IMG/VR virus record: IMGVR_UViG_3300032282_002092
Coordinates: 1-64,000 of that record
DNA length: 64,000 nucleotides
Origin: a virus
Reading direction: 5' to 3' (one strand)
Every line of letters begins with the position of its first letter. Within the stretch, counting starts at the first letter, position 1. This document shows positions 5,032 through 6,561 of the stretch, one piece after another. A program made the position numbers and the translations under genes. The notes beneath the pieces were generated by a model. That model did no database searches, was not told the origin of the DNA, and saw only the letters and a list, made by a program, of their open reading frames with translations.

Positions 5032-5573
5032 CAGACGTTCGGGTCTGCTGTGCGATGGATGATTGCAAAACGTGAGCGGAGGGCTACCGCCCACTGGGTG
5101 CCGAATTTCTCAGGACTGACCTGTCCCGAGATGATCGTGATGAGTCCCTCCTTGGTTCGCTTATCTATATATGGAAGTACGAACTTCTTGAAGAACTCTG
5201 AGTCAGTTTCCTCAAACACGTCATCGATCCAAGTCAAGGGAGCAGACCATAGCGTCTCAAAGAACAGGTCCAACGTCATCCAGTCCTGCCATACGGCAAA
5301 ATCCGAGCCGTTCTGACGGAGGATGTCCCGCTGAATCCATTCACGCCGAATCTTGGACAGCAACTCTGAGGCACGGACATACTGCGCCGGTCCCTTCGTC
5401 ACGATCTCTGCATGCTTGCGGAACTCGCTGCGTGCGTACTTTGCGGCCGTCGATGTGCCAGAGCAACGTGGACCCCAAACCCATAGGCCGGTTGGCCCTG
5501 AGGCTGTCATGGCATTAGAGACAAACTCGTCAACGGCTTCGCGTACCGCTGGGTTGAGTGTCACGACCCCCAT
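5031..5573 (-). CDS. DnaC/IstB-like helicase loader with degenerate P-loop
   Basis: GLWVWGPRCSGTS, YVRASELLSKIR, TWIDDV, RTKEGLITIIS; two genes upstream of DnaB. Confidence 0.7.
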   Translation of the reverse strand: MGVVTLNPAVREAVDEFVSNAMTASGPTGLWVWGPRCSGTSTAAKYARSEFRKHAEIVTKGPAQYVRASELLSKIRREWIQRDILRQNGSDFAVWQDWMTLDLFFETLWSAPLTWIDDVFEETDSEFFKKFVLPYIDKRTKEGLITIISGQVSPEKFGTQWAVALRSRFAIIHRTADPNV

Positions 5574-5860
5574 GTGGTGTCCCGATCAATGGCAGCGATG
5601 ATGGATGCCATCGTCTCCACAGTGTCGGGGTCCAAGTACGCAATGATCTGATCCATGCGGACCTGTCCCAGTTCTAGGAAGTTGTGGATGCAATGCAGGG
5701 TATCAGCCAACTCCAACCCGATATCAGCAGGGATGCAGACATCGAACAGGGCGGTCTTCAGGACATCAGAAATCCTCTGACGCTCTTCAGTCGTGGGACT
5801 GGGCACGGTGGAGTAATACGCCAGATCGACCGCTGCTTCAGTGAGTGTGTGGTTAGCCAT
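5561..5860 (-). CDS. hypothetical protein
   Basis: ATG-started ORF overlapping the start of the loader gene. Confidence 0.55.
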   Translation of the reverse strand: MANHTLTEAAVDLAYYSTVPSPTTEERQRISDVLKTALFDVCIPADIGLELADTLHCIHNFLELGQVRMDQIIAYLDPDTVETMASIIAAIDRDTTWGS

Positions 5861-5904
5861 AGGACTTGGAAGTTACACCCTTCCGCTTGGAATAGCAACT
5901 ACGG

Positions 5905-5947
5905 AAAAATAAGAACCCTCCTGCTGGGGGAAAGCAGGAGGGTTCTT
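5905..5947 (-). terminator. rho-independent terminator
   Basis: Perfect 15-bp stem AAGAACCCTCCTGCT/AGCAGGAGGGTTCTT followed by ATTTTT on the - strand. Confidence 0.85.
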
Positions 5948-5950
5948 GGC

Positions 5951-5978
5951 AGGGCAGTTTAGACACATGCTCAGGTGT
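5951..5978 (-). ncRNA. compact H-type pseudoknot motif, copy B
   Basis: ACAC CUGAGCAU GUGU CUAAAC UGCCCU; covaries with copy A at 6209-6237. Confidence 0.6.
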
Positions 5979-6082
5979 ACCGACTCTACGCCTAACGGGG
6001 TTACTGGGTTGTTCACCCCTCGTAGCACATGCGTCGGCTGGCACGCCATACAACCATACCATTGCCGGTATAGGTGCATGGG
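5979..6082 (-). ncRNA. putative structured RNA (two stem-loop domains)
   Basis: CCAUGCA/UGUAUGG + AUACC/GGUAU hairpin; nested CCGAC/GUCGG, CUACG/CGUAG, GGGGU/ACCCC. Confidence 0.4.
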
Positions 6083-6085
6083 CAG

Positions 6086-6201
6086 TGGGTCGGGAGGGAA
6101 TCGAACCCTCAGTCTCGCAGGTAAACACAGTTCACGCTAGGAAACGCCGAGTGTGCCCATCCTAATCCTGCGACTAACGCCATGCCATCTAGCGCCGCCC
6201 C
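6086..6201 (-). ncRNA. tRNA-like RNA with a 45-nt insert in place of the anticodon loop
   Basis: Acceptor GGGGCGG/CCGACCC-A (one mismatch), D-arm CGCUA/UGGCG with GG in the loop, stem UCGCAGG/CCUGCGA, T-arm GAGGG-UUCGAUU-CCCUC. Confidence 0.75.
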
Positions 6202-6208
6202 TTGTGAT

Positions 6209-6237
6209 AGGGCAGTTTAGCGACATGCCCTAGGTCG
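6209..6237 (-). ncRNA. compact H-type pseudoknot motif, copy A
   Basis: CGAC CUAGGGCAU GUCG CUAAAC UGCCCU: P1 CGAC/GUCG, P2 AGGGCA/UGCCCU. Confidence 0.65.
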
Positions 6238-6243
6238 GTACGG

Positions 6244-6561
6244 TCAGGAGGAGGGCTGGGTCGTGACTCGCACGTAGAGCACGATGACCGGGCCGTTCAG
6301 GCCAGCCCAAGTGCCGTCGTCCTCAGTGCGGACGGCCGTCTCCCAGTTGAGGTTGTCCTGCTTGGCGTACCGACGGATGCTCTGAGCCAGAGCGCTGAGG
6401 CGGTTCCGCTCCTTCTTGTCGGAGGCCGCACGGACGGTCCAGACAATCCACTCGCCGGGGTTATCGGCGGCGATCAGTGCCTGCTTGGCACGGGGACGGC
6501 CTCGCCCCGAACGGACGGGGGTGGGAGGGGTTCGGAAGATTACGTCGGGAGTGTTCATCAC
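6244..6561 (-). CDS. small basic protein, putative nucleic-acid binding
   Basis: AT-hook-like RGRPR, NPGEW motif, GC3-rich codons; GTGA overlap with the upstream gene. Confidence 0.65.
   Translation of the reverse strand: MMNTPDVIFRTPPTPVRSGRGRPRAKQALIAADNPGEWIVWTVRAASDKKERNRLSALAQSIRRYAKQDNLNWETAVRTEDDGTWAGLNGPVIVLYVRVTTQPSS

Follow-up and report, generated by a model that had tools for sequence, protein, structure and literature searches.

The 28-nucleotide, luteovirus-type pseudoknot of beet western yellows virus (BWYV) reportedly stimulates -1 frameshifting. At frameshift and readthrough signals, the length of the spacer is such that, with the stop codon in the A site, the knot meets the entry channel of the ribosome. 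Among the smallest pseudoknot aptamers, of like topology, are preQ1-I, SAM-II, and guanidine-III. T7 gene junctions carry RNase III processing sites and, in chloroplasts, PPR10 sites are intercistronic. According to PMC10879173, hammerhead, twister, and theta ribozymes occur at gene boundaries and near tRNAs, with theta ribozymes lying 3' of the tRNAs. PMC10690425 describes csRNAs upstream of GP20 genes, and six csRNAs without names.

Here, we describe two copies of a compact element in a 64,000-nucleotide stretch of viral DNA (the whole of which we call the window). Both belong to a very large, conserved family of 28-nucleotide H-type RNA pseudoknots. No family in Rfam 15 matches the motif and no Rfam model matched any copy, either in the window region and 24 loci at E <= 1, or in 20 further loci at gathering scores. 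Keyword and sequence-string searches of the literature found no description. Note that the 10,006 candidate RNAs of PMC10690425 may include the motif.

The two copies and their surroundings

A preliminary description had reported both copies, and we located each of them at the positions that it gave. The features of the region, with P denoting stems and L denoting loops, are as follows.

6209..6237, - strand: pseudoknot copy A (covariance model R1, 30.8 bits, E 1e-5; family pattern match)
6237-6234 CGAC / 6224-6221 GUCG, - strand: copy A P1 (pairing read from sequence)
6233-6232 CU, - strand: copy A L1
6231-6226 AGGGCA / 6214-6209 UGCCCU, - strand: copy A P2 (6/6 paired)
6225 U, - strand: copy A L2
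6220-6215 CUAAAC, - strand: copy A L3
5951..5978, - strand: pseudoknot copy B (covariance model R1, 38.1 bits, E 1e-7; family pattern match)
5978-5975 ACAC / 5966-5963 GUGU, - strand: copy B P1
5974 C, - strand: copy B L1
5973-5968 UGAGCA / 5956-5951 UGCCCU, - strand: copy B P2 (4/6 paired)
5967 U, - strand: copy B L2
5962-5957 CUAAAC, - strand: copy B L3
6244..6561, - strand: upstream ORF, 105 aa (TGA at 6246-6244)
6086..6201, - strand: tRNA-like RNA (acceptor-like stem, T arm, long stem-loop)
5911..5947, - strand: intrinsic-terminator-like hairpin (15-bp stem, 7-nt loop, tail ATTTTT)
5561..5860, - strand: downstream ORF, 99 aa (no Pfam or PHROG family)

As originally proposed, the P1 stems differ in sequence and both pair. 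Pairing of the loop with the 3' tail was also correctly described for copy A. For copy B we count four of six pairs, not four of five, with A5971.C5953 and U5973.U5951 unpaired. Copy A is therefore a family member with 4 + 6 pairs, and copy B one with 4 + 4 pairs and two mismatches. Both contain CU and CUAAAC. The interval from P1 to GCA, in copy A, is 1 nt longer than the family norm. A repeat search detects the copies as a 20-nt direct repeat, with 90% identity and a spacing of 258 nt. A type III antitoxin (ToxI-like) locus, where head-to-tail tandem repeats immediately precede an endoribonuclease toxin gene, is not indicated by two copies at this distance and neighbouring ORFs of no Pfam or PHROG family.

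No third copy was found in the window by exact 12-mer, R1 model, or mismatch-tolerant pattern. The 12-mer CTAAACTGCCCT occurs at 2 places in the 64 kb, both being the copies described, and the consensus pattern from other phages, with up to 3 mismatches, matches copies A and B only. The best other match to R1, a model trained on 103 rows with copies A and B among them, scores 7.8 bits (compared with 30.8 and 38.1). By chance, 0.04 family-pattern matches are expected in the window, and 2 were reached in 1 of 100 shuffles. A regular expression search of the whole 73-kb genome also returned no copy besides A and B. Close relatives of this phage were not found, by megablast or by tblastn with a 925-aa protein. 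Cobavirinae roseophages match the segment 5954-5981 (copy B) with 96-100% identity across 25-28 nt.

The TGA of ORF 6244-6561 lies 6 nt before copy A begins, a stop-to-motif spacing typical of the family. This ORF has no Pfam or PHROG family. The tRNA-like RNA begins 7 nt beyond the end of copy A, confirming the distance first reported. Its acceptor-like stem is GGGGCGG/CCGACCC, with one mismatch, and its T arm is GAGGGTTCGATTCCCTC. At the place of the anticodon arm is a 7-bp stem enclosing 47 nt. No tRNA finder calls the region 6086-6201, and a 23-mer spanning the T arm and acceptor matches only ordinary tRNAs, in six jumbo-phage arrays. Copy B lies behind this non-coding RNA, at its 3' side, and the terminator-like hairpin (5947-5911) begins 3 nt after it. 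Hence, the earlier placement of copy B just before a terminator is right for the window. It is not a trait of the family, since terminator-like hairpins occur downstream (<=80 nt) of 2/159 relatives, compared with 18/795 random positions. Further on, ORF 5561-5860 is the first gene of a replication module, followed by genes for a DnaC-like loader, DnaB, primase, and an SNF2 helicase.

Conservation and distribution of the fold

The family consensus is 5'-NSAC-CU-RRGCA-U/A-GUSN-N(U/A)AAAC-UGCYY. Stem P1 has 4 bp (N-S-A-C / G-U-S-N) and P2, which ends GCA/UGC, has 5-6 bp; the stems cross. Loop L1 is 1-2 nt (CU), the junction L2 is one nucleotide (U or A), and L3 is 6 nt, with the sequence N-(U/A)-AAA-C. 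When instances were collected by a scan of the stems only, leaving loops free, the matches listed had CU at L1 (103/103), AAA in L3 (103/103), and C22 (100/103). At L2, these 103 listed matches had U in 63 cases, A in 39, and C in 1.

For 103 instances, which like all our instance sets are phylogenetically non-independent, 90.9% of cells were paired, compared with 79.9 +/- 0.7 after shuffling (0/500 as high). Double-sided changes numbered 122 in the same instances, compared with 51.6 +/- 4.7 in shuffled sets (0/500), and only 0-21 when partners were slid as a control. Compensatory changes are seen at all ten base pairs. Variant copies have flips even at pairs that are otherwise invariant, with U-A, C-G, and G-C at 3:14, G-C at 4:13 (phage ort11), and further flips at 9:25 and 10:24. 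The H-type fold put forward for the two window copies is thus borne out by covariation in both stems. The suggested check on further copies was also run, and relatives keep P1/P2 complementarity. Conversely, because of the covariation and compensatory flips in both stems, a DNA operator, which the preliminary description had named as the alternative, is disfavoured. We conclude that the structural reading, of an RNA element on the gene-sense - strand, is strongly supported. The functions first suggested (an RNA processing or nuclease-blocking element, a small ribozyme, or a protein-binding motif) are all still candidates, now constrained by host range and by spacing to stop codons, start codons, and tRNAs. 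The balance of G.U and A.C combinations (22 and 15, by hand count) is weak evidence for the strand.

At least 250 distinct instances were found in viral contigs, cultured phages, and prophages, across many bacterial phyla. Carriers include roseophage SIO1, Cobavirinae, Lactobacillus phages, crAss-like phages, a cyanophage, an N4-like rhizobiophage, and about 94 Staphylococcus phage records. The hosts of these phages include Alphaproteobacteria, Firmicutes, Bacteroidota, and Cyanobacteria. The motif is also carried by MAG contigs or prophages from, among others, Patescibacteria and Chloroflexota. Several copies per contig occur, as do tandem or paired copies. One motif variant, used as a query, had no match in E. 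coli genomes. Since hosts span many phyla, the motif does not depend on a lineage-specific host factor, and its function must use machinery common to all bacteria, or none. Few other non-coding elements are shared as widely among phages as this one, which has six near-invariant loop bases in the matches listed from the stems-only scan and is a possible annotation marker of phage gene boundaries.

Separately, three CRISPR arrays contain the motif as a spacer. Hosts, it appears, exploit its conservation.

Gene context and possible functions

Copies lie between genes and have the same sense as the genes beside them. Among the 162 matches listed, the motif shares its strand with the closest upstream ORF in 121 and with the closest downstream ORF in 110. 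Both neighbours are co-directional in 103 of 130 classifiable cases and both are antisense in 3. Distances from the stop codon to the motif, in these 162 listed matches (set 1), were 4 nt (5 cases), 5 nt (17), 6 nt (13), 7 nt (10), 8 nt (7), and 9 nt (7). The stop was closer than 4 nt in 4/162 and within 12 nt in 72/162. For the 89 matches listed in an independent set 2, the equivalent counts were 4, 8, 7, 4, 2, and 4, with none of the 89 closer than 4 nt. Hence, about one third of instances start 4-9 nt past an upstream stop codon. The distances show no preference for frame (18, 27, and 23 cases; hand tally, set 1). In about 40% of instances, there is no end of a long ORF within 30-60 nt. In our first analysis, the distance to the stop was shorter than that to the following start in 86/122 cases (p = 2e-6) but, in set 2, in only 42/74. 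Convergent and divergent neighbour pairs were equally frequent (12 and 12), although these rely on mechanically called ORFs and are uninformative on a 3' or 5' role.

The motif is often 15-30 nt ahead of the next start codon, most commonly 16-24 nt, and many cases have a Shine-Dalgarno sequence within about 6-10 nt after the motif. A tRNA lies 1-9 nt downstream at loci L018, L056, L137, and L161. Sinorhizobium phage ort11 has tRNA-Gln directly after the motif, also at 1-9 nt, and 4 of the 89 matches listed in set 2 have a tRNA directly downstream. Otherwise, downstream genes are generic and often encode abundant products: scaffold, SSB, primase, and glutaredoxin. The motif of Staphylococcus phages is inside an operon, before scaffold and capsid genes. 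Sequence 3' of the motif is A/U-rich and G-poor, with 43-54% T at positions 29-32. Some copies have a clear U tract; the window copies do not. Flanks hold no additional conserved element and, upstream, are unconserved. An added upstream helix was found in 36/156 cases, compared with 23-38 at shifted control positions. Mean folding z was -0.41 for the downstream 50 nt and -0.99 for the upstream 50 nt. RNA data were matched for a Staphylococcus-prophage relative (L006:1700-3000) in 20 runs, all as assembled contigs. Contigs of 2 runs span the motif uninterrupted, and 2 raw-read runs had zero reads on the stretch; RNA ends were not seen in these data.

Given its spacing to stops, starts, and tRNAs, we infer that the motif sits as punctuation, acting in cis and at the RNA level, between units of polycistronic phage RNA. 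We tentatively favour a self-folding intercistronic element, either an exonuclease-blocking end cap or an insulator. The 4-9 nt spacing would leave the knot folded while ribosomes terminate, and a ribosome-binding site or tRNA follows shortly after it. As in other minimal pseudoknots, both stems probably have the invariant loops packed into their grooves, and a knot so compact could be a barrier impassable to exonucleases. The upstream cistron may then be freed by an endonuclease that cuts within the A/U-rich spacer or, where a tRNA comes next, by RNase P. Its 3' end would consist of the knot and a short tail, insufficient for 3' exonucleases. The knot could also shield a ribosome-binding site or tRNA on its downstream side from the sequence before it. 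In the window, the mRNA of ORF 6244-6561 would have copy A as its cap after removal of the tRNA-like RNA, and copy B follows that small RNA on its 3' side, before the terminator. An end cap or insulator would explain the balance of phage expression inside long operons, and provide a ready-made, host-independent part for synthetic operons.

Several considerations argue against an end cap. Ordinary hairpins already suffice as nuclease barriers. Loops as invariant as CU and AAAC, in so many phyla, more usually mark a catalytic core, a pocket for a ligand, or contact with one specific partner. The weaker bias towards stops in set 2, and the roughly 40% of instances that are not near the end of a long ORF, also count against it. 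Finally, the 3' strand of P2, and the bases that follow, can pair with the Shine-Dalgarno region, which looks switch-like (at least three of positions 23-30 are paired in 25/42 cases that have a nearby Shine-Dalgarno sequence, by MFE folding of the 3' segment, with no null model). This last observation favours a translational ON switch, similar to a riboswitch, where a small molecule, ion, or conserved protein stabilises the knot. Folding would withdraw the anti-Shine-Dalgarno bases, in or after the P2 3' strand, and free the downstream ribosome-binding site. The topology and size class are those of the smallest pseudoknot aptamers, invariant nucleotides gather at the helix junction and loops, and start codons are most often 16-24 nt after the motif. 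We nevertheless consider such a switch unlikely. Downstream genes are mutually unrelated, several copies can occur on one contig, the junction nucleotide L2 is freely U or A, and downstream terminators are rare (2/159). Moreover, some copies directly precede tRNAs or consensus promoters (L111, L064, L086, and L108), and others are far from starts. No Rfam riboswitch family matched. In particular, the preQ1-I model (RF00522) had no match in the window and 24 loci at E <= 1, or in 20 further loci at gathering scores. Nor did downstream ORFs (glutaredoxin, Zn-ribbon, primase, SSB, scaffold) indicate a link to queuosine or 7-deazaguanine genes.

Cleavage of polycistronic phage RNA into units, by a very small new self-cleaving ribozyme or at a sequence recognised by a universal endonuclease (RNase P, for example), would suit an element that is phage-enriched, multi-copy, and independent of host phylum, with a conserved core and covarying stems. 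Placement at gene boundaries and beside tRNAs is as for hammerhead, twister, and theta ribozymes, and one motif copy has a RAGATH-1 hammerhead at a distance of about 600 nt. We regard this explanation as improbable. The 28 nt leave no room for the core of any known ribozyme class, and Rfam ribozyme models (hammerhead, twister, twister-sister, pistol, hatchet, HDV-like) do not match the motif copies. Note that L2 is 1 nt where HDV-like ribozymes need P3/L3. Furthermore, the distance to the tRNA 5' end varies between 1 and 9 nt, so the motif alone cannot define that end. That RNA-library contigs cross the motif unbroken is a weaker objection. Equally doubtful, in our judgement, is an element directed at the ribosome or a protein. 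Here, the knot would dock at the mRNA entry side of a terminating ribosome, or the platform of an initiating one, holding ribosomes for re-initiation, or enhancing or uncoupling the next cistron's translation, or would titrate a universal RNA-binding protein. The 4-9 nt spacer after the stop equals that of frameshift and readthrough pseudoknots, a Shine-Dalgarno sequence is often within about 6-10 nt, and the universal host range suits a universal partner. However, this leaves copies before tRNAs, and after non-coding RNA (copy B), unexplained. It also fits poorly with copies that begin a transcript, immediately behind a -10 box (L027, L028, L043, and L112), and with the roughly 40% of copies away from stop codons. 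A slippery heptamer or leaky stop, with coding in a fixed frame through the knot, is not indicated: distances are spread over frames, as tallied above, one frame of the motif has UGA/UAA/UAG and UAA, and upstream flanks are unconserved.

A signal at the level of DNA (a promoter with TAAACT as the -10 element, an operator, or the edge of a cassette or site of recombination), or an atypical intrinsic terminator, is very improbable. TAAACT does resemble a -10 hexamer, the phage phiJB record marks the site as a putative promoter, and the motif precedes genes and tRNAs. Yet compensatory changes at every pair cannot be accounted for by recognition of double-stranded DNA. Strong sigma-70-like sites are not enriched (6/166 upstream and 8/166 downstream, with about 5 expected). 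A sigma-70-type promoter, with -35 and -10 hexamers at 16-18 bp, needs no pairing within the molecule, and yet covariation is present. The motif also lies inside operons, as in Staphylococcus phages, and the window has no promoter-like site between 5400 and 6800. Recombination might be suggested by identical 25-28-mers shared by otherwise unrelated phages, and by copies flanking the tRNA-like insert in the window. For a terminator, there is the T content of positions 29-32 and the U tract of some copies. This tract is not general, is lacking from the window copies, and copy B has a separate canonical terminator after it. An NrdR box, a CtrA box, or an operator at ACAC..GTGT was rejected because of covariation. 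An rRNA-leader boxA, considered for L147 and L152, was also rejected, as these copies belong to a small mobile element that carries a replication initiator.

It is possible, though doubtful, that the family is a new RNA class: the smallest natural self-cleaving ribozyme, a minimal riboswitch for a universal cellular signal, or the first bacterial exoribonuclease-resistant RNA (xrRNA), and in any case a portable, host-independent part for phages of most bacterial phyla. Were it a ribozyme or aptamer, the class would be a new minimal one.

Relation to described systems

GP20-a and GP20-b (RF02991 and RF03003) occur upstream of GP20-type scaffold genes, as does the motif in Staphylococcus and Lactobacillus phages. 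Neither model matched, by cmscan, at 9 loci with the motif ahead of a scaffold gene. Like the small ribozymes of phages (hammerhead, twister, pistol, hatchet, and HDV-like theta), the motif is phage-rich, multi-copy, and often close to tRNAs, and its core is conserved while its stems covary. Unlike theta ribozymes, it lies 5' of tRNAs, and it is shorter than ribozyme cores and matches none of their models. With preQ1-I (RF00522) and other pseudoknot aptamers it shares an H-type knot of about 30 nt, an A-rich 3' loop, and an adjoining Shine-Dalgarno sequence that can be sequestered. It differs in having one variable base as L2, no association with a single pathway, and copies that precede tRNAs and promoters.

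The knots of luteoviruses, such as BWYV, are similar in size (about 28 nt), with two short stems, an L1 of 1-2 nt that includes C, a tolerant junction nucleotide, and an A-rich L3. They are also placed similarly, 5-9 nt beyond the A-site codon. However, the feature upstream of our motif is a stop codon rather than a slippery heptamer, with no frame preference, and the stem lengths are reversed (P1 4 bp, P2 6 bp). In addition, the motif is found before tRNAs and in non-coding RNA, and DNA phages carry it. Flaviviruses and plant viruses have xrRNAs, which are likewise small viral pseudoknots, often in tandem; these act unaided by protein, in any host with the nuclease. A keyword listing found no bacterial or phage xrRNA in print. 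Bacterial nucleases differ, and xrRNAs have a ring topology around the 5' end, the fold established for the motif being the H-type knot. Finally, T7 RNase III sites and PPR10 sites resemble the role that we propose, being intercistronic punctuation that defines and stabilises the ends of segments. Those systems need a long hairpin and RNase III, or a bound protein. The motif, in contrast, consists of a 28-nt knot whose sequence is conserved and which many phyla share.

Two motif copies at a module boundary

Direct reading of the window confirmed the - strand sequences first reported for copies A and B of the 28-nt H-type pseudoknot. They are listed here with the modules on either side.

Motif copies in the window and flanking gene modules
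6237-6209, - strand: copy A, CGAC-CU-AGGGCA-U-GUCG-CUAAAC-UGCCCU; 4 + 6 Watson-Crick pairs
5978-5951, - strand: copy B, ACAC-C-UGAGCA-U-GUGU-CUAAAC-UGCCCU; 4 + 4 pairs, two P2 mismatches
upstream of the cassette, - strand: baseplate and tail genes
downstream of the cassette, - strand: replication module (DnaC-like loader, DnaB, primase, SNF2 helicase)

The P1 stems differ in sequence and, as originally described, both pair (4 bp in each copy). Pairing between the loop and the 3' tail is complete in copy A (6/6); for copy B, credited with 4 of 5 pairs in the preliminary description, we count 4 pairs and two P2 mismatches. A repeat search recovered the copies as a 20-nt direct repeat (90% identity, 258 nt spacing). 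Copy A and the TGA of the ORF upstream (6244-6561) are 6 nt apart. The reported neighbours are also in place: copy A ends 7 nt 5' of a 116-nt tRNA-like sequence (6201-6086) and copy B ends 3 nt 5' of a 15-bp terminator hairpin (5947-5911). From ~16.6 kb down to 0.9 kb of the window, every gene is on the - strand. Given the gene layout on both sides, the cassette lies at a module boundary of the 73.5-kb phage genome. No close relative of this phage was found among deposited phages.

The tRNA-like sequence drew no ARAGORN call, and its Rfam match was confined to the T arm. This RNA (6086-6201, -) has an acceptor-like stem with one G.A mismatch and a perfect T arm; a 7-bp stem around 47 nt replaces the anticodon arm. 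Its MFE fold is cloverleaf-like, with a z of only -0.86. A 23-mer, covering T arm and acceptor, is identical to ordinary tRNAs in six jumbo-phage arrays. The ~107 nt that separate the tRNA-like RNA from copy B (5979-6085, -) have no convincing ORF signal; together with both knots and the terminator, these may form one small non-coding transcript. Directly 3' of the terminator, 9 nt before an ATG at 5860, TTGCTA-N17-TAACTT was picked out by eye (5861-5905, -). This promoter candidate, absent from the consensus scan's list, would give a nearly leaderless first replication-module gene.

Elsewhere in the window, the 12-mer common to both copies is absent. Similarly, a consensus from other phages, allowing up to 3 mismatches, matched the window at copies A and B only (expectation 0.04). 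With a covariance model of the family, whose 103 training rows contain both window copies, they score 30.8 and 38.1 bits; the next-best window match scores 7.8 bits.

Covariation and loop conservation

Across 101 distinct instances, the second P1 pair is C-G in 48, G-C in 47 and unpaired in 1. At the fourth P2 pair, 87 have A-U and 11 G-C; at the fifth, 55 have G-C and 21 A-U. Among the 103 rows, 90.9% of cells pair, versus 79.9 +/- 0.7 in shuffles, and double-sided changes number 122, versus 51.6 +/- 4.7; none of 500 shuffles was as high in either case. When the 3' partners are slid by 1-3 columns, 0-21 double-sided changes remain. Inner pairs were set by the scan pattern, so variant copies were sought in the collected loci with the covariance model. 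These flip exactly the pattern-fixed inner pairs. Numbered by motif position, pair 3:14 is U-A, C-G or G-C, pairs 9:25 and 10:24 are A-U and U-A, and pair 4:13 is G-C in phage ort11. The compensatory changes proposed from two copies thus extend to the family: further copies keep P1/P2 complementarity, in the 103 rows and in the variants. Judged from these alignments, the pseudoknot is evidently a genuine RNA-level fold.

The loops were examined without selection by fixing one common stem combination in an IMG/VR scan, which gave at least 103 distinct matches. Among the 103 listed, loop 1 is always CU; at loop 2, 63 have U, 39 A and one C. Loop 3 reads N, then U (82), A (16) or another base (5), then AAA (103/103) and C (100/103). 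Hence, the family consensus is NSAC-CU-RRGCA-(U/A)-GUSN-N(U/A)AAAC-UGCYY. In the classical minimal pseudoknot, likewise, loop 1 (1-2 nt) crosses a stem 2 of 5-6 bp, and an A-rich loop 3 crosses a 4-bp stem 1. Tolerance of both U and A at the junction points to a base that is flipped out.

Carriers, neighbouring genes and novelty

The family first came to light in a sensitive blastn search with this region among deposited phages: 25-28 nt in Celeribacter phage P12053L and in Lentibacter phages ICBM1, ICBM2 and ICBM3 are 96-100% identical to copy B. The search found no other sequence shared between these four and the window. For an eighth record, a mycobacteriophage, the match was to the T arm and not the motif. 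In P12053L, ICBM1-ICBM3 and SIO1, the motif lies in sense between ribonucleotide reductase and glutaredoxin genes. Further blastn queries returned 112 phage records, of which 94 are Staphylococcus phages (phi80, phiNM4, phiETA3 and phiJB among them). Other carriers are Lactobacillus (including phig1e), Moraxella, Anoxybacillus, Nostoc, Acaryochloris and Clostridium phages, two crAss-like phages, cyanophage S-RIM4 and the N4-like Sinorhizobium phage ort11.

Scanning IMG/VR with 14 conserved core bases gave at least 118 loci, ~100 of those listed having the complete motif. A stricter pattern, applied to one genome per prokaryotic species, gave 57 loci, in Saccharibacteria and other Patescibacteria, Bacteroidota, Firmicutes, Chloroflexota, Cyanobacteria, Planctomycetota, Verrucomicrobiota, Actinomycetota and Proteobacteria. 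Most appear to be in prophage-like or mobile contexts, given their integrases, scaffold genes and small hypothetical genes. Three CRISPR arrays, two from Veillonella and one from a Saprospirales MAG, have the motif as a spacer (contig loci L157:601-704, L177:575-665 and L130:4576-4643). Hence, hosts target this conserved phage sequence. Tandem or close pairs, 7 to ~80 nt apart with no gene between, occur at six loci.

Tandem or paired motif copies
L128:3295-3369
L156:6558-7226
L114:4540-4717
L048:186-279
L097:1788-1907
L115:455-1089

In L156, the same ~90-nt cassette (knot and hairpin) precedes each small gene. Other RNAs on carrier contigs are a RAGATH-1 hammerhead ribozyme (L148:7538-7613, 69.7 bits), which follows a motif copy by ~600 nt on a Rickettsiales MAG contig, and a 6S RNA gene, unrelated to the motif, in Ligilactobacillus (L170:4714-4909, 51.9 bits).

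Proteins encoded downstream are mutually unrelated: glutaredoxins, FmdB-like zinc ribbons, primases, SSB, nucleases and lysins. In Staphylococcus and Lactobacillus siphoviruses, a scaffold gene and then the major capsid gene follow, within the late operon. A 57-61-aa protein starting MP-x-Y-(D/E)-Y-x-C, presumably resembling an FmdB-type zinc ribbon, recurs directly after the motif (L011, L021, L028, L043, L058, L070, L076, L078, L119); several of these contigs have a 7-bp hairpin, TTCGGGT..ACCCGAA, 5' of the motif.

No copy matched Rfam 15 (window region and 24 loci at E <= 1; 20 further loci at gathering scores). Searches by sequence strings or keywords found no literature description; PMC10690425 includes candidate RNAs without names upstream of GP20 scaffold genes, and its supplements may list the motif. 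The motif is a compact cis-acting viral pseudoknot, a kind already known, with a real chance of being a new functional class.

Position and possible function

The motif lies between genes, in the same sense as its neighbours. In set 1 (162 instances), it shares its strand with the nearest upstream ORF in 121 and with the nearest downstream ORF in 110. Both neighbours are co-directional in 103, and antisense in 3, of 130 classifiable instances; in the other 138 of 268, one side has no long ORF within 250 nt. The sharpest regularity of position is the distance from the stop-codon end of an ORF of at least 60 codons. In set 1, stops lie 4 (5 instances), 5 (17), 6 (13), 7 (10), 8 (7), 9 (7) or 10-12 nt (9) away; four are closer than 4 nt, and 57 instances have no qualifying stop within 60 nt. 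An independent set of 89 gave 4 (4), 5 (8), 6 (7), 7 (4), 8 (2) and 9 nt (4), with none below 4 nt and 39 beyond 30 nt. Copy A, at 6 nt, fits this 4-9-nt regularity. The upstream stops of set 1 include all three codons. Since its three frames are about equal (18, 27 and 23 by hand tally), and one reading frame of the motif contains stop codons, recoding is not the cause of the spacing. When a stop codon occupies the A site, the ribosome covers a further four to five nt before its entry channel. Thus, the knot is as near the stop as folding allows.

Downstream, a Shine-Dalgarno sequence and start lie within 45 nt in 42 cases, the start mostly 16-24 nt past the motif. In 25 of these, a raw count with no null model, bases in and after the P2 3' strand can pair with the Shine-Dalgarno. 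Of 122 pairs of stop and next start, 86 have the motif closer to the stop (p = 2e-6); in the second set, only 42 of 74 do. A tRNA follows within 1-9 nt at L018, L056, L137 and L161, in ort11 (tRNA-Gln) and in 4 of 89 in the second set. The sequence 3' of the motif is A/U-rich and G-poor, without conservation. Strong promoters, extra flanking helices and terminators (2/159) are not enriched beside the motif. Individual promoter-like sequences do occur: a perfect TTGACA-N17-TATAAT immediately 3' of the motif (L111:3926-4010), and TGnTATAAT 6 nt before ATG in L064, L086 and L108, a spacing that suggests leaderless genes right after the motif.

The RNA fold, ribosome clearance on both sides, use before mRNAs and tRNAs, occasional tandems and occurrence in phages of many bacterial phyla together indicate a generic, host-independent part, not a gene-specific regulator. 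A riboswitch-like switch, which we consider unlikely, would fit the invariance of CU and AAAC and also the anti-Shine-Dalgarno overlap. A new small ribozyme or processing site, whose case is a distribution like that of phage ribozymes, is improbable; a ribosome-directed or protein-directed role, to which frameshift-like spacing points, is about as improbable. Stem covariation argues against a DNA signal or terminator, making this very unlikely.

Our tentative preference is for intercistronic punctuation, with the knot a compact barrier impassable to exonucleases; this role we infer, rather than read from RNA ends, of which none were seen. A cut in the A/U-rich spacer would leave the upstream cistron capped by the knot. 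Alternatively, RNase P cleavage at a following tRNA could leave the knot as the upstream cap; the 1-9-nt tail left by RNase P would be too short for 3' exonucleases. The downstream unit might be shielded or insulated. T7 RNase III sites and chloroplast PPR10 sites are intercistronic punctuation, and the role proposed for the knot would be analogous.
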